Shown here: positions 4,001-52,646 of the stretch, piece by piece
Position numbering within the stretch: the first letter of the stretch is position 1
How the letters are laid out: each line of letters opens with the position of its first letter
Source of the DNA: Candidatus Omnitrophota bacterium
GTDB taxonomy: Bacteria > Omnitrophota > Gorgyraeia > Duberdicusellales > 4484-171
Length of the DNA: 64,000 bases
NCBI GenBank assembly: GCA_021735655.1
Contig: JAIPGM010000001.1
Span: 160,001 to 224,000 of the forward strand
Direction of reading: 5' to 3'
Translations under genes and position numbers: made by a program
Notes under the pieces: generated by a model
What the model was told of the DNA's origin: nothing
Seen by the model: only the letters and a program-made list of their open reading frames with translations
The model's database searches: none

Positions 4001-7000
4001 TAGGAGTCGATCGCGCTAGCCTTACTCGCTGGATGCATAGCTTACCTAATGATTTATTAGGTGGGTTAGATCCAGAATTAGCAGTCTTCAAACAAAGAAT
4101 CCTTGATTTATTTGATGAAAACAATACTCGACCCCTAGACAACGGTAAAGAAAATATAGATTTATTAGCGGTTACAGCAGTTAAAAGAGAGGACACCTCA
4201 CCGTGGCTGGCGGGCCCTCTCTCTGCTGTAGCCCCTATATATATAGGTAAACAGCAGGGGCCGCTAGATAACGGCCGAGCGCCTTTGGATAATGGCCAGC
4301 CAGCTAACTTTTGGAAAGTTTTGCATTCTGGTATATACGTACTTCCGATATATTACACTCGACTTTTCGATACAGCTAAAGACGCAGGAATTGGAAAATA
4401 TACTTATGTAGTGCCGTTTGTTCGTGATCATGTATTGTCTTTAGGCCATCAAGCGATACTTTTCTTACCGTTTTCTTTGCAGTTACCTTGGTCGCAATCT
4501 CCTTATGATGCGGCTGATTGGCGTTATTTTAATACTGATTATATTGATTGGGGGCTTATCCCTGAGGCTCAACCTTTTCTAGGTAAGTTCGATTATTACG
4601 GTCATTCACAGCGTAGCGTTGATTTTCGATCAATCCGGCCACGTGAATTATTAATCGGAAAGGCCGCCTTTCTTAATCTCAGAGACAATCGAGAAAAACA
4701 ATACCGCCAGCGCTGGGAAGATTTTCAAAGGTTTGTTAACAATCAGCGAAGTAGAGGGCCGGAGTGGGATTTAACCCATCTTGGTCATTACCGGGCCTTC
4801 AATGATGTCTTGGGTAATGATTTTGGTTTATGGGTTCATGAAGGGATGTATTGCCCTAGGCAGGATACCCATCCAGATGTTATCAAGTACAACGTTGCTG
4901 AGCAAAATAAAAATATGCAATATTCAGATTTAATTCAGTTCTATCAATACCAGCAATGGATTGCTTTCGGCCAGGCTCGCGATATGCTTGAAGGTTTGCG
5001 CAATATTGGTGTCTTTTATCTTTTAGATAATCCTTTCTTTCATGCTAAGGGTGGTATTAATTTTTGGACCCAAAACATCATTTCAAGAGATAGGCATTAT
5101 GAATTTTTTGATCGTTCACCCGGTGTACCCGGAATCGGTAGTGACCCTGAACAATTCTGGACATCTTTGGTTCCTTGGAATTGGCCTAGATTAAGAGAGT
5201 TGGACTATGAACCTTTCTTAAACCCTTATCATTATTATTTAGGTGATTTGGGCGCTCAGGGAGTTCGGGCTGATGCTATTCATTTTCTTTTTCCTTGGAT
5301 TCATTGGGAACGCGGTCCTTATGCTGCTAATTTTCAGAGTTGGGAGTCCCCGGGTCATGATTTACTTTGGAGATTAGACAACGTTTTTAATTCTTATGGA
5401 GCTTTCAGGCTTGGCGAGTTACTTGGCCCGGGTTTTGAAAGTATTCAGAGAATGGGCTTTGATAATTATCACTGGCATTTCTATCGGATGTGGAAATGGG
5501 GTGGCGGACCTGATTTAAATCCGGGTTGGAACGCAAAAGCTTTAGAGTTACATGATGGGCCGCGGGTTTGTGTTGACCATGAACACGGGTTCTATCCTTA
5601 TGCCGGACACGCTTATTTACGGCATCGTTTGGAGGGCCCGGGCGGTCTAAAAGAATTAAATAGTCGTTTCCTTTTAGGCAGTTCGGATATAGCTATGGTT
5701 TATGCCGGAGATGAAGTAGCCGACAACTGGTGGATAAATAACCCTAATCTGCCTGAGTGGATGATGGATCGTAATTGGGCCACTCGAATGCCAATGCAGG
5801 GCGATCAGGATTTTGATCTTTCAGTAGCCTTGTCCATGCTTGAGCATCGCCGTTGGATTGGCCAGCGTCTAATTGAGCGGACGCCTTTGGATAATGGTAA
5901 GCAAGAGTTTAATCATCTTAGCTTGGTTGAATCTAACGGTGAACAAAAGTTATACTCAGCCAGTAGTTTAGTAATATCTCAAAGGGGAGTCTATTTAAGC
6001 CCGACATCAACCGGGCCGAAAGAGGTAATTTCTCAGATTCAACTTAGCCCAAGCGGAATTAAAGTTTCCGGGGAGTTAACTAGCCAGGAGCCAAAATCCC
6101 GGCCAATAGATTATCGTCACTCTTATGAAATTAACTTTTATTTTGAAAAATTAGCTAAAGCCTATGGCCGCGGTTTGTTTGTCGGTATCAATGACGTACA
6201 GCTTTGGATTCGTCTTAGCCAGGCTTTGGGTGATTTTTTATGGGGCGTTTTGCGTCTTGAAACAGGGATTTTTGATATTCCCGATAGAAAATTACGACGC
6301 CTGGTGATTCAGGAAGCGCTTTATCATGAGGTGATGACTAGTGCCTTGGGGCTTTCAGTGGCTAATCGCGGCTTGCGTGAGTTTTTTGCAACCATTTTAA
6401 GTGTCAGCCATTTTTGCTATCTTAGCGAGATAGCTAAAGATCAGGATAAGCTTAATTATCGTTTAGGGATTCTGCAAGCTCTTGATCGGGGTTTAATCCA
6501 GATGAGTGATTCACTGGCTGGGCTATACCGTCAAATTGCCGAGTCTGGCAGTTTACCTGATCCAGCAACCTTGGTAAAAGCAGTTATAACCCATATTAAT
6601 GAAGAAGAACGATACCATAGTGACCGGCGTTCATTTAGGGATTATGTTCGAACTAAGTCCGAGAATTTTAGCGGACGCTTTACAGTCGGAAATCTTACCC
6701 AGGCGGTATTAAATGATTCAGCTTTACAGTTAGAGTTACAGGCAGAGTGGACAAATTTCTTGGGATTTTTAGCTAATTCACAAACCGTAGCCCGTGCCTG
6801 GCAGCCGAAAATTAAATTTATAAGAGGTCCGCGGGGCATAAAGGTTATTAATCCCCAAGGCGTACCGGATCAAGGCGGCTATCAATTCCAGCTGCAAAGT
6901 TTCCGGGCAATTTTTGACTGTTTGGGTTTGCCTAATCCGCTTAGTGAGCCAGCTGCCCTAAATAGATATTTAGGTTTTCTGCCTGAGCCTCCTGAGTATG

Positions 7001-10000
7001 ACTCCCAAGCCGTAAATTTACCGGAGTTAAACATCAGTCAAATTTTACCCGGAGTAGCTGTTGTTTATCCGGATAGTTTGGAAGCTAATCAATTAGCGGT
7101 AAGGCGAGCTTTGTATGAATTGATGAATTTTCGGGTTTGGAAGTTAGCCGTTGAAATACGTGGCGCCTTAGGTACAGAAGATGCTTTGTTTTTTGATCAG
7201 CATTGTCAGGTACATTCCTTTGTTGATGTAGCCCAAGGGTGGATGTTAGATTTAAATCCCCAAAGCCCGATAGTCTATGATGATGTTTTACCCGGCGGCC
7301 AAGCTTACGAAGCGCCGGAGCAGCCGGATTTAGCCGAACATGAGCGATTGCATCAAAAGGCTCAGGCAGTTTTTTCAAAAGTTTGGGCAATCACTATGAA
7401 CAGGTTCTTGCGGGATCAGCGGATGTTTGGCGGTGAAGCCGTGGGTTTAGTTGGCTTTACTACAACCGTACCAATATTATATCGTTACATACAGCAATGT
7501 AAGCATTCTGAGCCGGAATACTCACTACAGCGACCTTTGAATAATGGCCTAGGCATACTTCAATATTTACAATCTTTACGTCGTAGCCAGGAAACCGAGG
7601 CTGCTAGAAGGGTTAGTCTAGACCAAGGCTTTGGGCAATTAAAAAGTTTATTAGTTGAAAAATTACAGTCGATTGATTCAACCACTTTAAGCATTGCAAA
7701 TCTTGATCAGGCTTTGAATGAAGATAGCCAGGCGATATTTTTAACCTTAGAGCAATTAAGAGAGGCACGCTTTCAGGCTGAGAGCTTTCGTAATGGGCAG
7801 GTAAGTATGTGTGATCTTGCTAGCCTAGCTTTGGCCGCTGCCAGCGAAGAAGTTTTTGGCCAGAGACACTTAGTTAAAATAGTTGTTGGCTATTATCGGG
7901 TTGATGAGCAGCTATATAAAAAACATTATTGGGTTGTGATTGATGAAACATTGTTGATTGATATAACTTATGGTCAGTTTGATCCGGACCATCTCAATCG
8001 TATTTTAGTTGCTACAGTAGATGATTACTTGAGATTAAAATTAGAATATGGTACAGAGTTAGAGCCGCTTGATAATGGAAAACAAACTCAAGTTCAGCCT
8101 ACTTGTTTAGAGGCTAGGTGGTGGAATAATTATTATCCCGGGGTTATCGAAGGAACTGGAATAAGGCCGACTGCCCGCTCACTTAGCTTTGAGCAGATCG
8201 AAGAAGTGGTTTGTCTATTACTTCTCGATCAAGCCGGCCAGGAATTGGTAGCTAAAATAATAAATAGAGAACTGCCCGATGTATATCCTTCGGTTCGAAG
8301 AACCGCTCTTAAAGCTATGGTCAGGTTCGATCATTACGAACTTTTTGGCCCGAAGATAATTACTTGTTTGCAGGATGTAGTCAGAGATGGAGCTGAGATG
8401 TATCAGCCTTTTGCTCTTTATGCTTTGGCTCAGACCCCGGCTTTTAATGGCCCGGTTGCCAATAGATTTGCCGAGGAAGCACTTAAGGGGACCCTTAAAC
8501 CAAGCCCAAGAAAGCCTACCGCAGCCGAAAAAACTGCCTTACAGGAAGGGTTAGAGCCAAATACTCAAGCGATTAGATTTAAATCCCGGCTTGCTTCAGT
8601 TGAATATTTAAAAGGAGTTTTAGCTCAACGTCAAGGTTGGGCTCGGGTTTGCCTCGGAACAGTACCACATTTTAGTCGGGTTAGCAATCGCGCTTTAATC
8701 AATAAATTTGCTGCTCAGGTATTAGCAGCTGATAAAAAGCTTTCTTCTAGTTCAGCTCAGCGACGCCAGAAAGATAAGTCAGAATTTTGGGGTCTTGAGC
8801 AAGCTGAGTTTATTCATCCAGCTACTGGCCATGAAGCTTTGGTTGAGCTGGCCAATGATCCGGAGTTATCATCTAGTGATGAAAGTCCTTTGGTTGATCA
8901 AATACTACATCAGATGGAGGAATTAGGTTATGTGCCGATATTGCGACCCAGTAAATTTCAGCTTACTGAGCCAGCTCAAGGTCAGGAAGCTGAAATTGAT
9001 CGCGAGGCGCTTTGGACCAAGGATGCTGTTTTGATGATTTCTACTAAATTCGGAATAGTTCCGGTTTCTTCAGCATTAGCCAATCTTAAGGGCGGTGAGT
9101 TCGTCAGTGGCTATGGTAAGCGCGGCAGCTTTATGATTATTCCGGCAGCCGCTCTAAATTCAAAACAGCAGCTATCTGATATAATTCCCGAGGTTCCGAT
9201 TCATGTATTTCCTTCGGGATTTTTGGTGATCAATGATCAGGGCGTAATTCGTTTAAGAGGAACCTCGCATATTGACACTTCTTTAGGAGCAATTCCGATT
9301 ATGGCCCGGCCAGAATCAGGCCAGTTGATGTTAATCGATCCTTTGTTGCATCAGGTTGCCCGTACACACCCTCGCTATCGCGATCACTATCAATCAGTAG
9401 TTCAAGAAGATGGAGTGCGTTTTATTGATGTGCCCGAGCCTGAACGTCATTTAAATCCTGCTAATTTTGGTATTCTTCCCGGTGGAGAAATATTTATGCC
9501 TTATGCGCCGCGGACTAAACAAGTTTTAATTGAGGCTGGGGTTAATGAGCAGTATATAATAATGTTACCAAGTGAATTTAATAAGTATTTACCAACCCTT
9601 CATGTTTTGGCGGGGAGTATTGGCTGTTTAGTGGCCCAAGCTTTTCATCCGGTTGAGAAGCGAGAGCCGCTCGACAATGGCCATGAAAAAGAAAAACGGC
9701 AAACTAGATCCCGAGCAATAGATATATCAACCAAAGGTGCTGAAGATTTATTGTTTACTGAGCTTCAAACAGGGAGTTTAGTTAGTTTAGTGGTTGATGG
9801 CCTTGAGTATTGGCTTAGCCTTGACCAGGGCGATGAAGTTTGGTTTGATTTATATCGGCCTAAAGATGATATCATTGGCTATATTTATTTTCGAAATGAC
9901 GCAATGCCAGCCAGAAAAATAGCCAATTTTGGCGGCCCGAGCATTGTTCCGGCTTACCGGGGCAGGCATTTGTCGCGAGTTCTTTATTTTGTTTATTTTC

Positions 10001-13000
10001 GTTATCTTTGGCGCAATAATTATATCCCTGAAGAAGACTGTTTGACTATCGATGATCGATTGGCCCTAAAGCTTTATCATGAAGCTAAAAAGTTTTATTA
10101 CGATCAAGACCATACCTTTACTCCGTTTCAGATTATTCCCCGAGCCGAAAAGACTAAAGCTGCAAAACCTTTAGATAATGGCCACGATATGGTTCAAAAA
10201 CAATTATTTGAGTTAATTAAGCGTAAGTCAGATTCGATTAAAACTTTCTTAGAGCCGTTTGAAGCTTGCCTTGCTTACAATGGAGTGTTAGCTTTGCTGA
10301 TTCGAGGAAGGCCTGACTTGAGCGTTAAATTTTTGCTTAAGAAGATTGGCTCGGCTGAGCATTGGTTTTTACTGGCTGAAACTGTTTTAGGAAATCATCA
10401 GTTTGTGGTTGATATTTCGCCGCAAGGAAAGATGTTTACCGATATTGAGGTGCTGGTTGTAGATTGTGCTGAAGCCGGAAAAATAAATTATCTATATGAA
10501 GATTATACTGTAGTTAGCGATCAAGAAACCGAAAACTTATTGCGAGCCTTAGCAAGACAAAAAGGGATGAATGAGTTCTTGCATTTAGTTCATCAATTAC
10601 CAGAAGAAAAATGGATAGGTAGGTTACCGGATAGTGACCAGTCGATGCCACTTGATAATGGTAAATTAATCAATGAAGGTTCAGAAAGTTCTTTTTCCGA
10701 TATAACTAATTCGATGCGGGTGACTTTTGTTATGCCGATGTACAATGAACAGCAACGCTTACTTCCCAAGACTTCTGATAATCCCTATGGTGAAGATGCT
10801 TTAAGGGTTAAAGTAAGTCAATTTAGAGAACTCGAGCAAGAAAATCCTAATTTCCAGTGGCGGCTAATTGCCGTAGATGACGGAACTCCCGGGTTTGCTT
10901 CAGCCAAATGCCTTGAGCAGATTTTGGCTGAGATTGATGCCCAGAATCGGGAATTTAATATCTATTCTAAAGTTTTCGTAGTGGTGATAACTGAACAAGA
11001 AAAGAAACTCCTAGGCAGCCGAAAGGGTGGAGCGGTTTTGCGTGGCTTTCAAGAGGCCCTAAGCCACGGTTGGGCTGATTATATCGGGATTACTGATACT
11101 GATATTTCCAGTAATGTTAACCAAACTAAAGATTTGATTTTGGCTCTTCGCAAAGGTGCTGGAGTAGCCATTGGTTCACGCCGCCAAAGCGGGGCCGAAG
11201 CTCGCGGCATACCGCTTTTAGGGAGAGTTAGCACAGTTATTTATAATTGGTGCATTCGTTTGATTTTGTGGCCGCTTTTTTCAATTCGTGATACCCAGCG
11301 CGGTTTTAAACTTTTTCAAAAAGAAGTAATTGTCAGAATATTACCCTATGCTCGCGATCACCATCTTTCTTTTGATACTGAACTGTTACTTTTGTCGCGT
11401 TTAGCCGGATACCAAATAGCTGAGGTGCCGATTGTCTGGATTGATTCAGCTGAGGCAACTACTTTGGTTATGTCTAAAGATGCTCCAGCGATGCTCTGGC
11501 GAGTGATTAAACAAGCCCGCCATATTTTTAATAATCCTTTTCGCGGCCAAAAGCCGCTCGATAACGGCCGAAAAATAAATCTATCAGTTAGAATGCTCAG
11601 AAAAGCTAGATTAATTACTGTTCATGTTGATGCTGGAGATTGTCCAGCCGCCTTAGCTAGCGCGATTGATAAATTAGTTTCGGGTTTAGGGCAAATCCAA
11701 GTAAGCCGTAGTAATATTGTCTTAAACACCGCCCATCAGAATAGCCCTATGGATATTGTTTCGTCGGTAGGCTCTCTCTCAACTGAACAGATAACAACTT
11801 TATTTCCTGAAGCTGTTTTTCTGATTGCTGGCGGCAATGTGTTTAAATGCTTAAGAAATCTAGTTGAGTCATTGGCTGTCGGCTCAGTGAACAAGCGAAC
11901 TGTTAGGATTTTTGTTCTTTACGATTATACCTATGGCCAAGGCTCTAATTATAGCCCTGAGCAATTAGCCGGTGAATATTATGATTATTTTAGCGATATG
12001 CTTTCAGTCTATAGTGATAGGTTTAATCTAGCTGTATTTTATCTTGCTCAGAATCAATTCGAGCAGGAAATTTACGGTAAAAATTTATCCGGGCCCAATT
12101 TATCTTTAGCAATTATTGAAAAAGAAGCTTTAGCTAGTCAAGTACCTTTAGATAATGGGCGTAGTCTTGGGGAGTTAACTGCCGAAGGCTACAACTTAAA
12201 GTTTCTAGCCCGCAGTTCTGATTTAAGAATGACTGCCCATTGCCGAAGAGATGTAAGTTTTAATAGTTATCTTTATGATTATCGCCTGGATCCAGAGCAT
12301 ACTTATCGTCAAGCCCAATTAGTTCCTTTAGTTGCTCGATCGGTTAAGGAAAATGCTTTTAGAAAGTCTTCTGATTGGCAATACTTGCCGCAGCATTTGA
12401 AAGATTTATACGATTCCGGTAAAGTTTTGATGATTGCTTCCCGAGCCCAAGCTAAAGCTAAGCCTAGCCGGTATTCAGCCTTAGTAATTTCTGGCAGGAC
12501 TGAGGCTTTTAGCGGCCGGATGGGTATTTTACTCTATGACAATCGGCCGATCATTGTTTCAATTTTAGATAAGCCTTTTTTCATTGAAGCTAAAGGAATC
12601 GGGGTTGCTCAAGGAGGTTTTAGCTCAGTGCATCGGCGCTCGGGCCATAGATATGAAGTTACCGGGGCTCAGCGTTGGCAAGCTTCCTTAAAAGAATTTA
12701 CCAGTTTAGAGCTTGAGCGAAAAATCAGCCGATTTTTTGGAACAGCTGATACCCCACGCGCCTTAGCGGCGATAGTCTATAAATATCCTCAAATGGATCA
12801 GTTAATTAGTGATAGCCTAACTAGCCAGGCTGAGCGAAGAGAAGCTAAAGAGCAGTTAGGCGATAGTTTAGGGATAATGTTGCGGCTTTCGCCTTCGAGC
12901 CGCCGCTTTGCTTATAATTTAGAACAGCGTCACATTAGAATGCTTGGTGAAGCTTCAGCCCGCCTGCTTTGTTCTTATCTTCCCCGAGTGCATACTTCGC

Positions 13001-16000
13001 CGCATTTTGAAAATCTTCTGGAGTGGGCCGAAGGCAGTGAATTCTCTTGGTCAGACTATGGAGATATTGAAGTGTTATTTGCTCAAAGTAGTTATCACTG
13101 GTCAAGGTCACTGATTAATGCCCGTCGGATATTAATGTCTTATTTGGAAACTAGTATTAGCTGGAATGTAAATTTATTAAAAAAACTGGGAATAATCGAA
13201 ACCGAAGCAGAATTTATCAGCGAATACCTAGCTGGCTTTGTTGCTTATGCTGAAACTTTAGACTGGATAACTCCTGAGGCAATCGAACGTTTAGCCCGAG
13301 TCCGCTCGCCTAAGGAGTTTGTTGACGTAATGATTTTTGAAGTATTCGCTTTAAATGCTTACAACGTGTTTAAAAAACAAACTTATGAAACTATAGTTGA
13401 AGTTAATCAGAATAATTTAGTAGAAGAACTTTTAAGCTCGGCTTTAACTATTGCCCAGCGGCAAGAGAAAGCTCAACTTGTTGCTGAGTTAAGTGGACAT
13501 ATTGAAGCAGCTAAACAAGGAGAGGCTTTTTTAGGTTGTCGAATAAAAAAATCTCAAGCTAATCAAGGGGTGCTTACGCCGGTAGCTCAGCCGGTTAAAA
13601 ATAGTTCTTGGGCTAATCCCTTTTTTGATCAATTCGCTTATGATTTATGGCATGCGCTACTTTTTGATGATCATAACCTTTATGATTATGTTCAGGCTAA
13701 ATGGGATTATACTGTTGGTGAAGAAGGGGCTTTTAACGTGGCCGGATTTTATCTGCTTGATGCTCATTATCTTGGGTTGTTGCGTTCGCGCACCAGCATG
13801 CATAATATACCGGAAAAATTATATATGTGTTCAGCTGGATATGAAATGACTGCTAATATCAACAAATTATTGACTGCGATTAATCGAGTTAGTTTGTGCC
13901 CTCAGGAAAATACCTTGGTGCGTTCAACCGTACGTAACACCTTACAACATGCGATTTCCCAGCGCCTAAGTAAGTGGCGCCTGGCTCGGGCTTTAATATT
14001 AGTCGTTGAATCTAACGGCGAAGTTCTTGCCGGAGACGACAGCACTTATGTTTATATTATGGATTCTGGTCCGGGCATGCCGATTGATGCGGTAATGCAA
14101 GGCGATTGGCGAAGACATAGTACGATGTTTGGTACGGATTTAAAAGGTTTTCGTGAATATAGGGACGTTGAATGGATTCTTGATTCTTGGTCAAGCAAAG
14201 CCGGCGGACCGCAACGTTGGGATGGTCTAAGAGGGGGGCTGGTTGAGGGAGCTTTAGTACCGGACAACATGCCTTTATTTGGTACTTTATTCGGTATGCG
14301 GCTTAAGCATGGCTTAGAATCGAGTAGCAAACCTTTAGACAACGGTAGAGATTCTCGGTCAAAAGGACAAAATCTTGGTAGTTTAGGAACGGCTAATAAG
14401 GCCCCTCCGGTAAAAACTTACAATGTCGAGAGTCCTTTTAATCGGTTTTCGCTGCGCCTTTTAGATTTAATTCTAACCTTATCTTTCTTGCCTCTGATTA
14501 TTCTAGCTAGCCTACCCATAGCTATATTTGTTAAATATCAGATTTTTAAACACAAGACTGGACAGTCAGTTATTTTTAAAGAGCAGAGATTCGGCTATAA
14601 GGGTAAACCGTTTATCATGTATAAATTTCGTACTTATATCGGCGATAAAGATAATCCTAAGGCAGTTTTACTGAGCTTGCGTTGTTTGGGGCTAGATGAG
14701 TTACCGCAGTGGTGGAATATCTTAAAGGGCGATCTTTCAATTTGGGGAGTGCGCCCTAAGTTACAAGATGATCCCAGCTCTGACAGTGATTTCCAAGCAC
14801 ACCTGGATCAGATCAATGATTTACGCAAGCCGGGAATAATTAGTTTAGCTACGGCTGATGTGCACGCTGAGATGGAGCATGTTTCTTTTTCAGCCGAGCA
14901 TCGCGATCGTCAGATCGCCTTTGATCTTTATGAAGCAGAGTATTGGTCATTCTTTTTAGCTTTTAAAATTGTTGTTTTGAATATCTTTGCTCAATTTAAA
15001 GAAGCAGCCAGGATTGTATTCCGAAATAAAATTTTAGTTATTGTTGCCGTGCATATTCCGCAAGCCGAGCAGCCAAAAGCCGGCCCAATTTTAAATATTT
15101 TAGAATACTTAAGCCAAAGATTCCCTTCGAAATATTATAGTGTCTTTGTTGGTTTTCCGGATTCAGGAAATCCCAATTTAAATTTAGATTTAGCTATTCC
15201 TCAAGGCTTAACCATTGGCTTAGGTGAAGGCGATGAATACAACATAGTTAATTCTCAAGGCCTTAAACTTAAATTTAGCTGGCAGTTTGAGGGGCCAGAC
15301 GATTTAAGCCAAAGAACTTTAAAAATTGGACGCCACAAGTTATTAATGCCATTGTGCGCTGAAAGTTCTCTTCCGGTATTTTCCGGAGCTAAGAAAAAAA
15401 TTCCCCATAAGGCTATCTTCATTCCCTTTATTGCTTTTCGTCCATGTATTGTTACCTGTATGAATGATTTAATATTTCTCAATCTTCCGATAATTGGATT
15501 AGATACCGCTAATGGCATATTTTTGTTTGTTCCCGGCTCAACCCAGATTGATATAGTCGGTACAAACAAGCTTCTGGCCGTAGCAATTAATCATTCCGGC
15601 AGGGTGATGGGCAGTTCATTTAAAGATTTGGACCAAGTCGTTCCTTTAGATAATGGACGTCAAACCATTTCCCACTTCCGAAGTGGGGAAGGTCAGAGCC
15701 GGACCGGCCCGACATCCCGTAATTTCCCCCTGGATAACGGCGGCCGGAATAATGAAGCTATCGAAAACAATCGGTTTTCATTCGCTAATCGTCTAGGAAA
15801 AGTTTTAGTTGCTACTGTTATCGGTGGAATTTCTTTAGGGTTATTGTATTTATTCGGCGGCCTTGATTGGTATACAAATATAAAAAATAGTATTCCTTTA
15901 GGGGCAGTGATTTTCTGGCCGGGGGCTTTCCTGGATATGGTTACCGGTGTTTTGATCTGGTTAATTTCCGATATCGTCGGTCAATATCTTAATCAGGGTA

Positions 16001-19000
16001 GAAGCATTCGCTATCGGCAAAGTTTTAAAGTTGGTGCTTGGGGAGTATTTCAAGGGTTGGCTACTCACATTTTGTATAATTTAGTTGAACTGCTTCCGGT
16101 TGTGCCTTTACCTTTAGCGCAAGCAATGTTTCGAACTATTTTTACTCTTTTTGGCGGACTGACTATTAACATTTTCTATACCGTGGTTGTAGCCCGGGCT
16201 CGTAAAGCATCTAAGGCTGAAGGTTATAGCGGCCTAAAGGAGCGCCACAAGGCTTATGATGTTATTTTTAGTAAGTTTATCGTCGCCCCAATCAAAACTT
16301 ATTTTATAGTTAATCTATTACCTCCGGCAACGCGGGTTATTAGCGAGCAGGCTTGGGAATACTTAATGAAAGTTTTTGATGCTTATTTGATGAACCGTAA
16401 AGATTCACTTTTTTCTAGTTATATTCTAAATTTATTATCTAGAAAAAAACCTTTAGATAACGGCCGCTCCGGGCAGTCGGATGATCAAATAACTTTGGTT
16501 TCTGATAATCTGGTTGACTCATTTAGAAATGTTAGACAAAGGCTGGTAGTAACTGTTAGGCGCGCACAGATGTCTAGATTGGATTTTAAGCCGGGGATAG
16601 TGTCACTTCAGAATATGAGCCCAAAGGTAGATTATTTCTGCCTTTCTTCAATATCTGAACGCCAAGAAGATATCCAAGCCTATAGGCAAGTTCCTTTAGT
16701 ACAGGATGGTGCTAGTTTTGGAGAAAGTTACAGTGAAAAATATCTTATTGCTCAGGAACCGGATACCTTAGTTTTAGTTGAGGGTGATGAAGGGTTGATT
16801 GCCAGTTTTGATTATTCGCTTTGTGGTTGTCTAGTCATTCGGGCTAGAAATCTTTTTGGCATGGCCCACTTAAGTCCATTTATAGATTTTTCGGATGAAG
16901 AGATGGAAATTGAAAATGATCGGATTTATTATAAATATTTATCAGTTTTAGATTATTTCAAATTACAGGGATATAAAGATGTTCAAATTTTTCTCAGTTT
17001 GAATGAGCTGCTTCAGGGATTTAAAACTTTAAAAGCTAGGCTTTGGTCGGCTGGTGATAGCGATGCGACTAATCGTCAGAGAGTGGTAGATCTTCTTGGG
17101 ATTGAGGCTAGGCAACGCGGCATAGCTGTTGTTGATCGCCGCCTTCGACAAAAGTCTGAGGTTCTAGATGTCCTGGGTTTTCCGAGAAAAATGATTAGCC
17201 GTCAATGGCTTAATCGCGGCACAAAACCCGAAAGTTTTGAAATAATATTTATTGAGACTAGAGATGAGTTGCCAGTAGCCATAAACTCAGAGACTCAACA
17301 ACCCGAGATTGAATACTTTCAATTCGCTTGGCCTGTTGTGATACCTCTCGATAATGGCCGCCGGAAACTACCAAATGATGACTGGATTTGGGTTAATGGA
17401 GAGAGTTTGCAATTTGTTGGCCGGGACGGTTTATTGATAACAGGAATGGAGGGCCGGGGTAAAAGTTTTTTGGCCAGAAAAATATACGATAGCGATGATA
17501 GATGGAAAGTCGTATCCTGCGGAGCTACTCATGTATGTATAAGGAATGAATTAGCAGAAAGAGCGCTTTTAGGCAGACGTTTATCCGAAAATAATCTTTT
17601 ATATTCCCGGCTGTCAGGAACAATCCCGGTAGAACTATCGTTAGATGTAGTTGTTAGGTTGAACTGGGTTATGGCCTTAGACGATCTATACCGAGAAATT
17701 TTAGGGGGATTGTTGGCCGATGCCGGGCAAAGAGAGTCTTTGGGCCTCAAAATTATAGATATGAGCGATCTAGACGTAACTCGGCAATGGCCGAAAGTGT
17801 TGAAGTTCATCAATGCGTCTATTGTGAAACCAGAGACTTACGATAAAGGAAATAGTTTATTTCAAGTCCCTCTTGATAATGGTAGACGAGCTCAAGTTGA
17901 ACAGGAACGGGAATTTTTGATCCAGACAATCATAAATGTTTTTAGCCAAGGTGAAGGATTATGCCTGGAGCCGGCGCAGATAGAGGCAGCTATTGCTGTA
18001 GATACATCATTTGATGAATACAGGATAGCTAGAAACTTGCCGATAGTTATTGGCCTAAAGGGTAATATTTATGAAAATTGTCCTTTGGCTAGCAAGCCTC
18101 TTCTTCTTGTGTTTACCGGCAGAGGAAGCATAACTAAACCAGAGCTTATCTTCAATGCCTACACCCAGCAAGGTTTAGTCAGAGAAGCAAGCCGTTTAAG
18201 TCGTTCGATGGAAACTAAAAATGCAATTTGGGAGATACCTTATCATGGCAAGAAGACGGCTTTCATATTGGAAGATAAAAATAACTGGATTGCTTTGGCG
18301 GCAGTTTATGGTCCTGAAGATATTTACCAACAAGGACTATTGATCTGTAAGGGTGGAGATAGGATAACCAGGTTAGGTACAGAAATTTCTCAAGCCGCTG
18401 GTGAGGCAGATGAGGAAGCTATATTTTCTGATTATTCCCGGGCCTTAGTGGTTGCTCGTCTTTTAGGATTTTCTATCCTTGATGGTCCAGATATGATGCG
18501 CCGGGTTAACCGGCGGATGAGCGCTATGATCGCGGCAGCAAAAGAGACTGTGGCCGATATCAATGAGTTTGCTAAGGCATACCCTGGTTATGAGGCTGTT
18601 GATACACATCACATACTTAAACCTACTACCAGTAATCCGGTGGAAGAGGGAGGTTTCCCGCACACTGAATGGATGGTGACTAGTCGAGGGGTTGTTCAGG
18701 GGACGGTTACTGCTTTGCGTTGGCTTAGACAGGTTCTTGACGTTGGAGAGAATAGGTACCCTGAGGAAGTGGTAAGATTTGTTAAAAATTTGAATATATT
18801 TGGAAGTCCGATGAGCTATATTGTCCAAGGCTTTGGTGATGTTGGCAGCGGCATCACTAAGCTTTTTTTGACTATTTTTAAGATTTTTGGGTTTCAGGCC
18901 AGGGGTTTTAATAACCGTTACTTTGCAATTTATCGCCGCGAAGGATTACCTAAACCATTTTTAGTTGAGGCGCGGGAGATCGTTGAAGTTTCTCCTGATG

Positions 19001-22000
19001 CTTTAGATCTAGGGAGATTACTGGCAATGAAGAGTTTTGATGACCAATTACAGGGGGCGGTGGTTTGGATAGCTAATCCAATTAACCCGAAAACTAAAGA
19101 GCCAGTATTTGGTCCTGCTGATGTGGACAGAGTAAATCAAGCTCTTGCTGAAAGAGGTGTTACTGCTATTTGGGGTGATCAGACAGTAGTAAATGAACTA
19201 ATTTATCAAAAGGCAACCGTGCTTTTTCTGGCTGCAACCGCTAATGTTATTAGTGAACTTTCTCAGGTTGAAAGATTGCAGGTTAAGATTATTTCTGAGG
19301 GAGCTAATAATGCAGTTAAACCTGAGTTAAGAGAGCCTTTAAGAAAAGCTAATGTATTTTATATTCCTGGTGAGCTTCTTAACGGCGGGGGCATATATGC
19401 TTCTAAGGAAGATATTCGGCATAACCATACCGATGGATCAGAATTAATAAGGCAACATCGGCAATACTATTATATACATGTAACTGATGAGATCGACACA
19501 TTGGCTCTTCACCGAATGATTTCTTTCCTTGAGATTTGGGCTGAGTCAGCAGGAAATTTTTCTTTTGATTTAACCGTCCATGTAGAAAAAGTTGCCGGCC
19601 GGATTTTTGAAGCAGCTGATAATTTGGTAAGAACCAATAATACACGTTTGAGAAAATTTACCCAAATTGATCAAAAGAGAACCTTTGATCATCAAGCCGG
19701 CCGGCCGACTTTGCCTTGGCGTCATAGTCTTTATGAAATTGCCATTGAAATGGCACCAATGGGAATACTTTATCATTTGCGGGATGTCGGTAGACACTTA
19801 TCTTTACTTAATAGATTTAAGGTTGCAATAAAGGAAGATGGTCAGATAGATAATTATCATATATGTCGTCTGCGTTTTGCTTTATTTGAGTTGACCAAGC
19901 TAGGCTATTATTTAAAAAGTAACCAGCGCAGAAGGTTAATCGGCCTTCTTCCTGGAATAATTACCGATGAAAAGTGTGATGGCCTATTAAGGAAAGATGC
20001 CATGTTTTGTTTGGCAATGGCAATTAGGTGGCAGGAAGAAGAATCCTGTAAATCTGAGGTAGATCGGGCAAGAAAATTATATTTAGGCATATTACAAAAT
20101 CCCCTTGAAAGTGCTCAGCTGCATACCTGGGCTCAGCATTGTCTCTATAGGATTTTCGGAGAAAATTACTTCCGGCGGATAAGCGCTGATTTTGATCGCT
20201 TAAACGGAGTTAACTTACCCAAGCCGCTTGATAACGGTCGGGATAGTTCGGTCGGGATTACCTCAGAACCGTTAAGAATTTTAGCCGAGCTAATTTCGAA
20301 TAGTTATCGGACTAAGGCTTTAGTAGAATTTTTGCAGCCTTTCTTAGATTGTGAATCTGTTAATTATTTACAAGAAGAGATAGCAAAGCATTGCCAGCTA
20401 CCGGCCTGGGGTGTTGTTTCTTCTAGCCATTATCTTGATGAAGGGTATTTCTATTATGGTTTAAAATCCGGTATTGATCGCTGTCTCGAAAGAGGAGTTA
20501 TGGTTGAGAATGACGGTAACAGATTATACGTTACTAAAGATTCAGAGGATACCGTAAAATATAGCGGCCTTGACGAAACTCAAGAAAACCAGTGGGGAAT
20601 TTTTATTTTTCCAAGCGAGTATTTCAATCAGGCTATCAATTGCGGTTATGCCGAGGCCGGCTTAAGGCTTTCACATAACCGCTTAGGCATAACTACTTAT
20701 CCATACTTCAAAAGTTCTTTATCGCTTGCGCCGGCACGCTTTCTGATAATTGATAGATCTAAGGCAGATGAACATAGGCACCTGGAAGGCCAGCCGAAGC
20801 TAAAAGATAAACTTCAAGCCTTGACCGAAGCAGGATTGAAGGTTCTATGGTTGCCGGATTCTTCCGGCCCATTCTTTGACCCTGATTTCCAATATGCTTT
20901 CGGGGAGTTGTTGTTTAGTAATGATATTCCGGAAACCAATCGCTTTCTTTTTTATCCGTCCGCAGATACTCAAGATCTTACAAAAATCATCTGGTGGGTT
21001 TTACAGTCGTTAAGAATGAGTAGTATAAAAAATCGGCTATTACATAATATGGAGTTAGCTCGGCAATTTAAAAAAATCGGCCCCTTTGATAATGGGCGAG
21101 CTGATTTTACAACAGCAGACGAACAGATCGGTAATCTTTTTGCTGAGGCAGTTATTACAGGAGATAATGTTTTAATTGAGACTCATTGGGATGCTGTAGC
21201 GGCTAAGAGAGGCGGCAGTTTGAATATTTTAGAACATGCTGGCTTAAGGATTACAAGAAGTTTAGCTTTAGGAATTGTACCGCGGGCTGGTGAATGGCCG
21301 GATAGGGTTGAAACCGATCAAATCATTCTGAGTTCATCTCGCTATGGTTGGATCGATTCTGAAAGAGATATTGAGCATTTGTTAAGCGGCTTTGATCAAG
21401 CCAGATTGCTTAATTCGTTTAATCTTGGCCATTATTATCAGGGTTGTCACTATCGAAGTTTCCTAAGCTGGCTAGCGGTTTTAAAGAGTAGTCATTTCCC
21501 GGCAGTTATTTTTCATTTCATAGGTGAGCTAATTAATTCTTGGGGTATTAAGCCAGCTGCTAAGAGTGATTTTCCAGTTTTGGCCAGTCGAAGGGATATC
21601 TTTTCTTTCGTTAGCGTGCCTTATGTTTCAGATATAGAAAAATTAGATTTGCCAGTTGCAGTGTTTTTTGATGGTAAGCTTAGTTCGCTTAGGCGTGGCG
21701 ATAGCCGGAAACAGCCAACTTTAATATTAGCTTATTGGCAAGCTTTGAATGGTTTTATTGGTTTTAAAGAACAGATAGCTAGGGAAACAGCAGAATTTCA
21801 GAATACCCCTTTAGATAATGGCCGCAAAGAGCATGACATCTCTGATAGTACGGTAATCCAATGGCCGCTTAATGTAATTGTTAAAGATATGCGCGGTTTA
21901 TCCAAAGGCGAGATATTAGCTGTTGTTAAAACCGGTAAAATATTTTGGGGAAGGGAAATAGTAGGAGCTATTTTTTCTGACCGCAATATTGTTTTTGGTA

Positions 22001-25000
22001 AAGTGGTCGATGATAAGTTTATAGTATTTGATGATTGGTTAATTGAAAGAATTCCTGGAGGATTGTTAGAGGGGTTGCGGAGAAGCATTTTATTTTTGCC
22101 TTATTTAGGAAGTATTTTAAGAAACAAGACATCGTCAATAAATAAACCCCTGGATAATGGCAAGAAATATAATTATCGGCAAGTCCTAGAGATGGTTGAC
22201 TGTTTTGATAGTGCAAGGTTAGAGGCTCACTTATTTAGAGCTCTTGGCAGAGTTGAGACTGAAGCCGTATCTATAGCTGGTGATATTATTAGGGCGGCTA
22301 GAAAATTTGAACGGATAACTAAAGCAGTAAAATCTCTTTATAGGAAAACTTACGGCAAGCTACCTAATTTTACTCTTGCTTTCGATCCTTCCGGTCAAGG
22401 TATGTATGGGGCGTATCAGGAGGATGATACAGCCGGATTTTTTGATCATATTGGCGTAGCTCCAGAAGATGTGCTGCTTGAGGTAGGCAGCGGCGATGGA
22501 AGCATTTCGGATTTCATGGCCCATATGTTTGGGATTAAGGCAACTGGGATTGAGGTTTGGGAGCCATATTATCATTACGCAGTTTTCTTAAGAGATGAAG
22601 CAGTAAGAAGAAGATTCATTCCAGAAGGTAAAGTAGATTTTTTAAATAATAATTTAGTAGATGTTGATTTTTCAAAGTATTCTTTAGTGTACTACGCTGC
22701 TCTTGGCACAAGAAGAAAAAGTGAGCTGGCTGCTAGATTGCTTGGGGTAAGAGAAAAATCCAGGATATTAATTCGGGGTTCACCTGATGAGTTAGTGGAA
22801 GGGATTATCGCATCACATCCTGATTTTAGCTTAAGGAAGCTTGAGATAGAAGTTAATGAAAACCTTACTGGAATTAAGGCAAGGGTTTATACTCGAGAGA
22901 CAATTACCAGTTACCAGCCGGTTCTCGACGTTCCTCTAGATAATGGCCGAAAAAATAACCCTCAGATGGTCAGAGCGCGCTTAGCCGCATTTGAAAAATC
23001 AATCGAGGGCATCGTGCCTAGGGCAGATCCGCTTTATGACCATTTAATTCGTTTTTATCAATATCCTTTGAATAATTTGGGTGAACCTGACGAAGAGACC
23101 TATGTAAGGAATAATACCAAGGAGCAGGAGCGGGAGCTTCTTAGATTCTGGGCCGGCCATTTCGGCCTTCCTAAAAATTACGGCGGTCATGTGACTATCG
23201 GAATCGGTCAGGCTGAATATTATGCCATGTACGTGGCTAGCAATCGATTTCCCAAGGCTATATTTTATATTTCTAATCAGGTCGATAGCCTTCTTTATGA
23301 TACTTTACAGGTGTTGGGCATTGATCAAGGAAGAATAAAGTTAATTAGGTCTTTAGAGAATGGCGAGATCGACTATGGTGATTTAAAGAGAAAGATTAGG
23401 GAGAATTCATCATGGCCGGCGGTGGTCTGCTTGACTGCTGGCAGATTCCTGGGGGCGGTTGATGATTTAGGAAAAGTGGAAGGAATTTTAGGGAGCCTGG
23501 GCCTAAAGCATAAACATATTCATTGCAGCATGTCACCGTTAAGTATAGGCCAGTCGTTTTTGGAAGATGCGGCAAAGATAGATTTTCAACATGGCTTAGA
23601 TAGCATGAGTCTACCGTTGTATCATTTTGTAAGGTGTCCGATGCCAGGAGTCATCGTTCTTACCAGAAGGAAATACCTTCAGAACATTGCTTGTAGTCAA
23701 AAAGCAGCTGAGTATGTTAACTCTAACGACACCACTAATTCTGGATCACGTAGTGGTCATGCTCCGCTTTATCTTTGGTTTGCTACAAAAGTTATTGGGA
23801 CTAAAGGATTTAAGGCTCAGGCTGAGCGGGCCAGGGAAGTTTGTGTTTCTATTAAAGCTCTATTTGACCGTTACGGTTATCCTTGCCGGTTCACCGCGCA
23901 AAAAAATACAATAATCTTTGAGCCACCATTTTATGAGTTGCGTCAAAAATGGGGCTTATTATCACACGGGCAATGGTCCTGTTTTGAGATTGTACCTTAT
24001 TTGACCCCGGTTGAGATAGCCGAATTTGTAAGTGATCTTTTAGGTGATCATTCTCAAGCGGTAGCCGCCCCGGTAGAAACCGTATTTCCGGAACGGATTG
24101 TCTATGAACCGTCTCCGGAAGTCTTAGATGTTTTGGATCAATTAGAAGCAAGGATCCAAATTTTGATGGAAAGATTTTTAGGATTTCCGGCAAATATCGC
24201 CGGCAATGAGACATCTTTTGCTGCCTTGAGCAGCTTGTTTAAATACACCTTGAGAAAAAAGGATGTGGAAGGTTTTCGACACGAAGCCTTGAAATTTTTT
24301 ACTGATCTTTACGGTTTAAGGTACGAAGATTTTTACTGCGGCATAACTGCTGGAGGAACCTGGGGAAATCGGGTTGGCCTATTAGTTGGCCGGGAAAATT
24401 TTCCCGGCGGGATACTTTATTACAGTCAGGATTCGCACTACTCGATTGATAAAGTGGCCAGGAGCCTTAACATGGAAGTAAGAAAGGTCGCCTCTTTGTC
24501 TAACGGCCAAATTGATTATGATGAATTAGCCGAAGCCATAGAGGAAAATCGTGGCCGCCCGGTAATTGTAAATCTTAACATCGGCACAACTATGAAAGGC
24601 GCTATCGATAATCCCCAAAGAGTTATTGAAATATTAAGAGAACAGGATGTTACTGATTACTATATCCATTGTGATGCCGCGCTTTTTGGTATGATTTTAC
24701 CGTTTCTCGAGGCTGCGCCAAAAATTGATCTGGCTAACGGCGTCCATAGTATTGCCATATCCGGACATAAATTTCTCGGCCTACCGATGCCTTCGGGCAT
24801 ATTCATGGTTCGGAAAAATTGTGCTAGGGATAGATTGATAACTATTTCGGATCGATTATTGACTGCCCAAACTGGCCATGTCATTTTGTATTTTTGGCAG
24901 GCTGTTGCTAGCCGAGGGTATGAGGGTTGCAGAGAAGAAGCTATGGCTTGTGTGGATAATGCCCAATATCTTTATTACAGATTACAGGAAAGGGGATTGC

Positions 25001-28000
25001 CTTCGGAGGTAAACCCTTTTTCCAATATAACAATGTTTTCCCGGCCATCGGGTAGCCTAATTGACACTTGGCAGTTAGCGCCTTGCGGGGACCGCGTCCA
25101 CGTAGTGGCCATGCAGCATGTTACCAGAGATAAGATTGATGCTTTTGTCCAAGAGTTAACTAGGGATATGCAGCAAGGGCAGATAGAACTAGCTAGTTCT
25201 ATGCAGCCTCTTGATAATGGTAGACGGCGCAAAGCATCGCTAGTGCCAGAGGTAGGCCTTGATGAATTAGTTGAAAAACATTTAGGAAACTTGAAGTTGA
25301 TATCTTCTGAGTATGGAAAAAGCGTAGGCATGTTATCTACTATTTTAAGACGACCAGACAATGAGAGCCTTCAACAAAGAGCAGAGGAGTTGAGGAAGAT
25401 TGGTCCTGGCCGTCTGGCCTTAGCAGCTGACTTAGGCGAATTCGGAGTAGATAGTTTGAAAATTGGTCAGAAGTATGGCGTTGGCCGAAGAACAGCGGCT
25501 AGTTGGCTTGTTAATAATGGATTTGGCGATAGGGTTAATAGCGCTAGATATAGTCGAAGTAGAACATTAAGACGTCAAAAAATAGCTCAGGAATATGAGC
25601 CGATTGCTCGCTTATTAGATGGTGAAGGCAATCTTTTACAGACATTTTATACCCATATTTCTTGGAAAGAGGTATCTGCTTATCCTTTCGCTGTTTTAGA
25701 TGAATTAGAAATCCAAGCTACCGAAGTTTTAAGTTATGGTGGTAAGCAATGGGGTCAGTTTAAGGGGCATGCTGGCCATAGAGCTCGGATAACATTGGAG
25801 TGGGGCTATCCAATAGAAGTTGCTATGTCTAGCAAAAGAGGAGTTGATCAAGGTAGCTATAGAGCCATGCAGCTTAGGACCTATCAGTCAACTCTTTTTG
25901 ATAGAGAGGGGGAACTCTTAGATACTGCTTTTTTCGTTTTTGGTTACGATGAAGATTTATGTCGGGGAACAACAAAAGTTGTTAACTATCAATTAACCAA
26001 GGCTGGAAGAATTAGTATTTTTGGTGATGAACAAATACAGCTAATAAAACATAAACAAGCCTGGGCTAATTTAGTTGCAGTGGATGGAAAGGTGGTCAGG
26101 GCTACCATTCTTGATAGAGAGGGCGGGAATGAGGTTATTACTTATAATTTTTCTCGAGTGTATGATGAAAACAACCGAGTAATTTACACTTTTACTGGAG
26201 GTTTAGAGTTTAAGCAAAGCAGTGTGCCGCCTGCGTTGTTGAAATCTTTAGCTAGAGGAAGAATTGAAGGTATTTACCTAAAAGGTGGTCGTGGCAACTT
26301 AACTATTGGCGGCAGAACTTGGGTTGTTTTAAGTGACTATAAAAATTATCCATGTAGGGCTTATATTGAAGAAGGGCTTGTGGTCAGAGTAGAGGTTTTA
26401 GGTGAAGAAGGAGAGGCTGTTTTTACCAAGCATTCTCACCGCCTTTATGATAGAGAAGATAACTTTGTCGAAGTATTTTATGATTCTATTTCACCAGAGC
26501 GACTTAACCAGGTTGGTTTGTGTCGTAGCAGTCCACTTATTGTGACTCCTTCAGGAGAGTTATGCTTATCTGGAAATCGTTATACTTTTGAAAATGAAGG
26601 CGGCTCTAAGGCTATTGTTTGGATTGAACCCGGAGTTAAGTTCACCAGAAATAGAAAGCCGGATGGTAAAGCAGTTAGAATTGATTTTTATGATCAATAT
26701 ATGCATTATAAGCATACCCGTTATGCAGTCAGAATCTATGAAGATGAAGGAGTTTTAATTGATACTTTTTTTGGTCCAGGATATGCTGAGAAGCTAAAGA
26801 TTTTTGGTGATGTAATTGGCTTTGCTCAACTCGATACGTTAGGTTCTCTTAATATTGGCTACACAACCCATACCTTTACTAAATATGGTGACCCTCGACA
26901 TTTTGTTAGATTTAGTCTACACCAGGCTCAAGTTCTGGATGTAGATGTTCTTGGCCATGACTATTGTCATATCGATAGAGTTGGCTTTGACGCTTGGCCT
27001 GATATGGCTATCGATCACTTTGAAATGGCCCGAATTGTTGATGAGCAGGATCAGCTATTACACACTTTTTGGTACGGTGTTTATTCAGAACGGATTCCCA
27101 ATAGAGGTAGAGCTAGAATTTTAGGGGCGACTTTTACTGCCGGAGGTCACCTGCGACTTGGTAACGAAGATGTTTATCATGATGCGAACTTTCCCGAAGC
27201 TAGAGTAAATGTTACTTATATTGACGGAGAAGTAAGTGAGATATTAATTTATCAGGATGCTCAAGGCAACTCAGTAAATTATCATTATACTAAAAAGCAG
27301 ATAGATAATTATAAGCGCAGAGTGCAATATTATAATCTGCGCGGTCATGTATTCGAGCATGCTTTAAGAGTTGCCTTACCTTTTTTAAGCGACTGCCCTT
27401 TTGATTATCAAAAGCGCATTGGTGGTGAAGTTGATGGGTGGGTTGATGGTGAAGCTGAACCAAAGCCAGCTGATTCCAGATCACTTAAACGTCCAGATTT
27501 TACTAGTCCTTTTAGCTGGGCAATGAGTGAAGGGGTATTGTGCTATATTGATGCTAAATTCAATCTTAGAATTAAGTTTTTAATAGAATATCTAGAGGCA
27601 ATTAAAGAGACTTTAAGAACTGATTATTTTACTGATTGTGATGCCCCAGTTGAAACACATTTTGTAGGAAGAGTTATATTTGAGATAGTTTATTTAGGCA
27701 GAGTAAGTGAAGCTAATGTAGAGGCAAAGTTAGCTGGTCATCAGAGAAATTTTTCAGCTACCAATTCTGAGATGCTCACCTTGAAACCAGTTAGCTTTCT
27801 TGATGAGTACGGAGATAGGCTTAAGACCGCTGGTCAGGATACTTTAGTAAGGTTTCTGAGACATCTGAGAGTTTTTCATTATAAGCCAGGTCGCAAGAAA
27901 GCCTTAGATAGCTATTTAGCCCAATTAGAACAGGATAAAATTCCCGAGATAGCCGATGAGCAGACTAATCTTTTTTCAAGGCCGCTGGATAATGGCCGAG

Positions 28001-48741: not shown

Positions 48742-48747
48742 AGTTAA

Positions 48748-49566: not shown

Positions 49567-49591
49567 ATAAGCAAAATTGTGAAAATTTAAG

Positions 49592-50464: not shown

Positions 50465-50467
50465 AGG

Positions 50468-52636: not shown

Positions 52637-52646
52637 AAATTTACAT

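Follow-up and report, generated by a model that had tools for sequence, protein, structure and literature searches.

The giant open reading frame and its junctions

We analyzed a 64,000-nucleotide (nt) stretch of the genome of a Candidatus Omnitrophota bacterium (assembly GCA_021735655.1, contig JAIPGM010000001.1, positions 160,001 to 224,000; hereafter the window), which carries at positions 64..31038 of the forward strand a single open reading frame (ORF) of 10,324 amino acids (aa) without a stop, and we consider here what the membrane topology of its product says about whether the chain is cut into separate proteins. Reading back from nt 64, another 21 codons are free of stops and the frame reaches nt 1 still open; the true start, and with it additional codons beyond the 10,324, probably lies upstream of the window. 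Thirty copies of a short peptide motif split this giant ORF into ~27 modules, all of them on the forward strand. According to profile searches, the families represented include a PNP/UDP-type phosphorylase, a TreT-like GT4, GH77, GT2, Bac_transf, an ELFV-type dehydrogenase, a methyltransferase, a pyridoxal phosphate (PLP) decarboxylase, a GH100-like hydrolase and a second GT4, while about a dozen modules have no match in Pfam (E ≤ 10) or NCBIfam.

That these modules are not made as one chain, being expressed from internal starts or joined by an assembly or sequencing artefact, is in our view highly improbable, even though the ORF comes from metagenome-type data and one GT4 module keeps its ancestral methionine. 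A run of 10,324 stop-free codons is not attainable by chance, the Logan assembly of run SRR12088349 agrees without a difference over the 21,719 nt compared (its contig ends at about window nt 4224), and the genes downstream are of ordinary size with normal stops. Internal initiation was specifically rejected: the first in-frame ATG lies 95 residues past the junction in the PglC-like module described below, beyond its membrane helix, 70 residues past the junction in the polytopic module, beyond its first transmembrane (TM) helix, and up to 269 residues past the junction elsewhere. A regular ribosome-binding sequence is absent.

The junction motif reads P-[LF]-D-N-G-[KRHQG]. Its proline, aspartate, asparagine and glycine are invariant (30/30 copies), its sixth position is lysine or arginine in 26/30, and conservation is confined to these six residues, the flanks being unconserved. 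The exact string PLDNG is observed 29 times against 0.009 expected from composition, and all six frames of the window, other genes included, are otherwise free of it. Every synonymous codon is represented at the junctions, which places the constraint at the level of the peptide and was also the reason for rejecting an origin of the motif as a DNA- or RNA-level repeat. A D/E-x-N-x-S/T N-glycosylation sequon was also considered and, by inspection, does not fit PLDNG[KR]. In both AlphaFold2 (AF2) models, of the polytopic and GT4 modules, the junction residues are disordered, with a predicted local distance difference test score (pLDDT) below 50. A search with concatenated junction contexts returned 0 matches at E ≤ 10, which is a weak negative, as a six-residue motif probably cannot reach significance there.

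Two further features of the junctions deserve description. Of two degenerate copies, PLNNG (aa 2491, window 7534-7548) lies inside a 727-aa module with no basic residue after it, and PFDNGR (aa 7007, window 21082-21096) stands at a module boundary. Moreover, tandem junctions occur at four places, namely a pair spaced 17 residues start to start (window 1036-1104), a triple spaced 43 and 7 (4132-4299), and pairs spaced 28 (15643-15744) and 29 (29263-29367). Two of these four sites directly precede membrane modules, and short polar peptides would be released if tandem junctions were cleaved.

Membrane-associated modules and their predicted sidedness

All 10,324 aa were scanned for hydropathy with 19-residue Kyte-Doolittle (KD) windows (threshold ≥1.6) and the Hessa scale, and hydrophobic stretches appeared in three places only: a PglC-like helix (aa 4795-4829; KD 2.43, Hessa sum +0.26), a polytopic module (aa 5243-5377, with weaker segments to aa 5421; Hessa -0.09 and +1.09 for the two best segments) and the N-terminus of a GT4 module (aa 9789-9809; KD 1.73, Hessa +3.27, marginal). 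An initial annotation of this DNA had described membrane-embedded modules that alternate with soluble enzymes along one polypeptide. The PglC-like and polytopic modules are indeed present in the region at nt 14347-16449, but "alternate" overstates an arrangement in which only 3 of ~27 modules are membrane-associated, two of them adjacent. That region corresponds to aa 4762-5462 and runs exactly from the junction at aa 4757 to the junction at aa 5463. Motif scanning places PLDNGR directly before it (aa 4757-4762, 14332..14349) and directly after it (16450..16467), with a double junction inside, composed of PLDNGR at aa 5194, a 22-aa polar spacer and PLDNGG at aa 5222 (15643..15744).

The first module of the region is a small monotopic phosphoglycosyl transferase domain of PglC type (14455..14994), an identification that is solid at the level of sequence. 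It matches the Pfam family PF02397 (Bac_transf) over profile positions 2-177 of 179 (E 1.6e-27; 96.6 bits against a cut-off of 27) and aligns with residues 7-186 of 205 of PglC in the PDB entry 8g1n (E 3e-14), an alignment that covers the helix, the Asp-Glu dyad and the C-terminal amphipathic helix. The catalytic dyad is present (LDELPQWW aligned with LDELPQLF of 8g1n), and there are no extra TM helices upstream of the membrane helix, as would be expected of the small phosphoglycosyl transferase architecture. The membrane helix itself (14446..14550, SLRLLDLILTLSFLPLIILASLPIAIFVKYQIF) aligns with the N-terminal helix of 8g1n (SLRLLD...ASLPIAIF versus LKRVID...TS-PIIIA); its break falls at ASLP versus TS-P, with a one-residue offset, and a second proline stands eight residues earlier. 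In solved PglC the N-terminal helix is re-entrant with both ends cytoplasmic, as is established for the family. By this homology, the helix in the giant ORF would also be re-entrant, making no crossing and leaving both ends of the module in the cytoplasm.

Compared with Campylobacter PglC (8g1n, 8e37), the module shares a collinear fold of ~200 residues, the LDELPQ dyad and the C-terminal amphipathic helix, and an N-terminal basic-x-x-Asp and a Ser/Pro helix break are probable further common features. It differs in having S-L-P instead of S-P, in lying 4,750 residues into a giant ORF, in the unrelated 209-aa domain behind it and in its distance from any database relative: searches of the GTDB species representatives and of 5.8 billion proteins with the region returned only generic Bac_transf matches at 26-34% identity, the query's own sequence being missing from both collections. 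The domain behind it (~209 aa, 15016..15642) looks soluble, is fused to the PglC-like domain without a junction and has no Pfam match. A weak additional hydrophobic window lies within it (aa 5128-5154, Hessa +5.5), and a 36-residue stretch of it shows a weak similarity to blades of designed beta-propellers (Pizza proteins, E 1.6e-4).

The polytopic membrane module that follows comprises 241 aa (aa 5222-5462, 15727..16449). Its AF2 model, built from a 22-sequence alignment, has a pLDDT of 92.3 and a predicted template modeling score of 0.87, with long helices at module residues 8-42, 64-90, 96-120, 129-161, 169-197 and 200-222 and a turn of two residues between the last two. The module is predicted to consist of four TM helices and a helix-turn-helix hairpin, by which the chain would be returned to a lysine- and arginine-rich cytoplasmic C-tail. 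The core of TM1 is placed at aa 5246-5267 (15799..15864; Hessa sum -0.09) and TM4 at aa 5350-5382 (16111..16209), both from hydropathy and the AF2 model, while TM2 (aa 5285-5311, 15916..15996), with the conserved pattern D..TG..W..D..GQYLN, and TM3 (aa 5317-5341, 16012..16086), with QG..TH.L.N, are placed from the model and the alignment. The hairpin, formed by helices H6 and H7 (aa 5390-5418 and 5421-5443; 16231..16392), is supported by the model and by charge bias. Across 22 family members, the mean number of lysines plus arginines (K+R) is 3.1 in the N-flank, 3.3 in loop 2, 6.0 in loop 4 and 4.5 in the C-tail, all proposed to be inside, compared to 1.5 in loop 1, 1.4 in loop 3 and 0.1 in the hairpin turn, proposed to be outside. 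This is a positive-inside signature for a cytoplasmic N-terminus, four spans plus a hairpin, and a cytoplasmic C-terminus (N-in/C-in).

A full HMMER scan of 1.84 billion representatives recovered 27 relatives of the polytopic module (E down to 2e-66), nearly all of which are embedded in further very long proteins (844-6,932 aa); stand-alone polytopic proteins of ~250 aa (P0134) also exist. Four of the relatives carry a source name, three of them Candidatus Omnitrophota and one Elusimicrobiota, and the identity of these four to the module is at most 54%. In addition to the charge pattern, sidedness is informed by a partner of the module in these relatives. The GT2 module of the giant ORF (aa 3529-3830, 10648..11553; PF00535) is related to polyprenyl-phosphate glycosyltransferases, and its only PDB match is dolichol-P-mannose synthase (5mlz, E 4e-6). 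In the giant ORF, 1,391 residues with several junctions separate GT2 from the polytopic module, but the two are adjacent or fused in five relatives, in either order: GT2 orthologues abut the polytopic N-terminus in P0121, P0127 and P0131, and GT2 follows the polytopic C-terminus after a gap of 52 aa in the metagenome locus L010 and of 87 aa in P0128. Because a GT2 that uses nucleoside diphosphate (NDP)-sugars must be cytoplasmic, both ends of the polytopic module would face the cytoplasm. The positive-inside rule, the membrane-free AF2 model and the GT2 fusions, which are assumed to be uncleaved in the relatives, thus all point to an N-in/C-in module.

The direct fusion of GT2 to the polytopic module in relatives is reminiscent of Pyrococcus dolichol-P-mannose synthase (5mlz) and GtrB, in which a catalytic domain is joined to a C-terminal helical membrane domain; the differences are that either domain order occurs among the relatives and that the two parts are far apart in the giant ORF. 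A conserved polytopic module with a polyprenyl-phosphate GT2, beside an initiating transferase of PglC type, suggests lipid-linked glycan synthesis, although the polyprenyl-phosphate chemistry of the GT2/polytopic pair is itself deduced from these relationships.

Might the polytopic module instead cross the membrane an odd number of times? The modules at aa 5463-9780 would then be periplasmic, and any cutting there would take place outside the cytoplasm. A naive count of hydrophobic segments in the module gives five, as does a possible Mpv17/PMP22-like core of four helices with an extra N-terminal helix. Pfam does not report Mpv17/PMP22 (PF04117) for the module even at E ≤ 10; an hhalign comparison of the module profile with residues 19-164 of human MPV17 is collinear over 137 columns with a probability of 45% (E 2e-4). 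In this alignment D..GQ in the first helix and N..(V/L)P...R in the last coincide, whereas the extra N-terminal TM helix is particular to the polytopic module. An odd count nonetheless appears extremely unlikely, given that the C-tail is K/R-rich family-wide (mean 4.5), that helices five and six are paired in a tight hairpin and that GT2 is fused after the polytopic C-terminus in L010 and P0128. Moreover, the modules concerned need NAD(P), S-adenosylmethionine (SAM), PLP or NDP-sugars, and there is no visible mechanism to export ~4,300 residues of folded enzymes.

The third hydrophobic element precedes a GT4 catalytic domain (aa 9812-10247, 29497..30804), which homologue searches assign to the mannosylglucosylglycerate-synthase-like type. 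Upstream of it stands a double junction (PLDNGR at aa 9734, a 23-aa spacer and PLDNGR at aa 9763; 29263..29367), followed by a hydrophobic to amphipathic helix (aa 9780-9812, 29401..29499). Stand-alone GT4 homologues (425-459 aa) begin with MKGKNIGFVS, aligned with M9812-KGKNILFVS, and the helix is absent from them; by this alignment, the hydrophobic stretch was inserted behind the junction at aa 9763 and ahead of the ancestral start codon. The ancestral MKGKN (window 29494-29511) is kept 49 residues after that junction as a visible scar of gene fusion. AF2 models aa 9780-9812 as one continuous helix of 33 residues and not as a hairpin, with a pLDDT of 52-84 and an alignment that holds no homologues there. 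The first 17 residues are amphipathic (hydrophobic moment 0.47) and include two arginines, and after a Ser-Ala-Pro only 11 uncharged hydrophobic residues follow. The helix may serve as a monotopic anchor or cross the membrane as a weak single span; monotopic binding to membranes is widespread among GT4 enzymes. The initial annotation had listed a TM-anchored GT4; the hydrophobic helix is there, but with marginal KD and Hessa values and a hydrophobic core of 11 residues a TM anchor is not secure.

This helix is where topology could force one cut. If it were a genuine single span with its N-terminus outside and its C-terminus inside, it would need a free short N-terminus, generated at the junction at aa 9763 or 9734. 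The AF2 helix does run uninterrupted straight into the first beta-strand of the GT4 domain, and it was added exactly between the junction and the ancestral start codon. Its C-terminal flank (RMMKGK) is basic while its N-tail has no net positive charge apart from one arginine, and the hydropathy scan finds no other crossing between aa 5462 and aa 9780 to compensate. We still consider a forced cut unlikely, since the best 19-residue window reaches only Hessa +3.3 and KD 1.73, the amphipathic first 17 residues with their two arginines leave a hydrophobic stretch of only 11 residues, and the straight helix may be a default prediction in a region modeled at moderate pLDDT without homologues. The monotopic membrane binding of many GT4 enzymes points the same way.

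Taken together, these elements suggest a simple arrangement. The PglC-type helix would dip into the cytoplasmic leaflet and return, with both of its ends in the cytoplasm; the polytopic module would start and end there; and all NDP-sugar-, NAD(P)-, SAM- and PLP-dependent modules, together with all 30 junctions, would then be cytoplasmic. It is therefore likely, on present evidence, that every well-supported membrane element is cytoplasmic at both ends, that the chain is self-consistent whether cut or uncut, and that topology neither requires nor excludes processing. The initial annotation had argued that a single unprocessed chain would be topologically awkward and had taken this as an independent argument for processing at the junction motif. 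The awkwardness disappears for the PglC-like helix, if re-entrant, and for the polytopic module, if N-in/C-in: with both, an uncut chain is feasible, and with an uncut chain feasible the threading argument gives processing no independent support. Only with a true single-span GT4 helix would the argument hold. The expectation that the junction motifs are cytosolic agrees with the topologies inferred here (30/30 cytoplasmic), and consecutive soluble modules on alternating sides of the membrane with periplasmic junctions were not found. Large cytoplasmic domains on either side of a helical bundle are common in bacteria, as in KdpD. Among 916 long Omnitrophota proteins, the commonest class, at 46%, is that of cytoplasmic domains with TM helices only (Nielsen and Lui, 2026; 10.64898/2026.06.07.730766).

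Three points weigh against this arrangement. The window does not reach the 5' end of the ORF, where an N-terminal signal sequence may be present. If the GT4 helix spans the membrane, the uncut chain would not be self-consistent at that place. Finally, in several relatives a hydrophobic segment resembling a signal peptide opens the protein, ~150 aa follow and the polytopic module comes next, an order that is difficult to combine with a simple N-in orientation in those proteins. The N-terminal hydrophobic segment, K..I....I..L..AF.FQD..WA.P, is conserved in P0122, P0123, P0125, P0127, P0128, P0129, P0133 and P0151; it looks like a signal peptide or anchor and fits poorly with the cytoplasmic enzyme modules and the N-in polytopic module behind it.

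Possible processing at the junctions

While topology is compatible with an uncut megaprotein, it is also compatible with a true polyprotein, in which ~27 separate proteins are released by a cytoplasmic protease acting on or beside PLDNG[KR]. The PglC-like, polytopic and GT4 modules would then work as ordinary membrane proteins, each by itself. We give such processing somewhat less than an even chance. The motif is a strict six-residue sequence with unconserved flanks, synonymously varying codons and far more copies than composition predicts, and its residues are disordered in both AF2 models. The junctions also fall at natural protein boundaries, as judged by the MKGKN start of GT4, the stand-alone P0134 of ~250 aa and the 205-aa PglC. 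Moreover, relatives, among them some labelled Omnitrophota by their sources, bracket the same polytopic module with repeated motifs of their own. In P0126 the motif is R[SAF]ExR (9 copies versus 0.10 expected), with copies at residues 2197 and 2464 flanking the polytopic module, and P0141 has the same motif (8 copies versus 0.04 expected), flanking the module at residues 626 and 884. P0133 has EGR[SG]xP (8 copies versus 0.007 expected) and a serine-protease-like GDSGSP segment near residue 4002. All three motif types contain a basic residue, which could serve as an Arg/Lys P1 site, and a conserved position combined with a lineage-specific sequence would be the look expected of a cleavage site co-evolving with its protease.

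Against processing, no protease domain or catalytic motif was recognized in the part of the ORF inside the window or in the 33 kb downstream. Regular-expression scans for catalytic protease motifs gave one isolated HExxH and nothing else, and two regions suspected to be Cys-His-Asp peptidase-like (aa 3369-3528 and aa 2560-2667) have no match in Pfam (E ≤ 10) or NCBIfam and are not similar to each other. The junction-context search retrieved no other PLDNG-bearing sequence. Furthermore, published work only speculates on cleavage: a preprint on such genes raises the idea that C39 or S8 domains do the cutting and describes the cleavage points as unknown (West-Roberts et al., 2023; 10.1101/2023.11.21.568195).

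A metagenome scan with a 7-sequence alignment returned two loci. Junctions of a different kind are seen in the locus L010 (JGI Ga0315279_10000025, positions 1-20657 of a 335-kb contig), which is one open frame across its whole 20.6 kb (>6,885 aa). The repeated junctions of L010, which lie between soluble modules, are hydrophobic elements and not short peptides. One type reads CFAFLGLAQ.DIPFSR.LVIALIAVTALVLFAVILRGQFWQ, with the LGLAQ core in 5 copies, and the other LPQWAAHQPILYGWVLPLAGMV.GG, in 8 copies; these elements resemble sorting signals, with a motif, a TM segment and basic residues.

If processing does occur, the giant ORF would be to a cell what a polyprotein is to a virus, a proposal that we put forward tentatively: a gene of ~31 kb would encode one chain that is cut in the cytoplasm at PLDNG[KR] into ~27 enzymes, with lineage-specific junction codes co-evolving with a dedicated protease. 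Three membrane proteins among the products would insert on their own, and the GT4 anchor would need its new N-terminus. The junction codes would differ by lineage, being PLDNG[KR], RSExR, EGRSLP or hydrophobic junction elements. In a radical variant of this polyprotein scheme, the invariant Asn-Gly may make the linker chemically self-cleaving.

Genomic neighborhood and relation to known systems

The genes downstream of the giant ORF include an Opp-type ABC transporter, an amine oxidase, ABC-2 exporters, many radical-SAM/SPASM/B12 enzymes and two GT4s. Those at window 39073-58062 look fused too; for example, three radical-SAM/SPASM units are joined in a protein of 1,284 aa and two B12/radical-SAM units in one of 1,052 aa, and an ABC ATPase reaches 1,155 aa. 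G+C content falls from 0.41-0.43 over the initial 26 kb of the giant ORF (0.38-0.39 over its final 5 kb) to 0.34-0.36 at window 39073-58062. Rfam and tRNA scans of the window were empty, with no rRNA or tRNA.

Giant genes of Omnitrophota, with a multi-enzyme class that has TM helices, have been described in two preprints (West-Roberts et al., 2023; Nielsen and Lui, 2026), and the giant ORF fits the later description, in which TM helices stand among cytoplasmic enzyme domains. It exceeds 10,000 aa, tiles many enzyme families (sugar metabolism, GT1/GT4, methyltransferase), lies in a radical-SAM neighborhood and has few TM helices, with most of its mass predicted to be cytoplasmic and no dominant repeat. 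What differs is that repeated junction motifs or cleavage points are described in neither preprint, and a text search of Nielsen and Lui (2026) for motif, linker and cleavage found no mention of them. The present analysis adds the junction-delimited modular structure, the topology of the polytopic module and its partnership with GT2, and the lineage-specific junction codes. Whether giant Omnitrophota genes encode megaproteins or precursors finds a clean test case in this window, with a strict and countable motif at natural boundaries. The topological result removes a tempting but invalid argument from that question and shifts the weight to the protein termini at the motif and to the status of the GT4 helix; the threading inference is weak, while the object itself is worth experimental follow-up.

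A literature text search yielded no example of a natural bacterial polyprotein of this kind and nothing relevant on PLDNG; if the chain is in fact processed, it would represent a polyprotein strategy for a cellular metabolic pathway. A further comparison is with viral polyproteins (flavivirus, picornavirus, coronavirus pp1a/ab), with which the giant ORF shares the serial arrangement of enzymes and membrane modules in one ORF, a short conserved junction motif at the boundaries and the lineage specificity of such motifs. It differs from them in its cellular DNA context, in its metabolic and glycan enzymes and in that no protease was recognized in the window. In the flavivirus polyprotein, the chain alternates between sides and is cut on both faces of the membrane, whereas in the giant ORF everything appears to be cytoplasmic.

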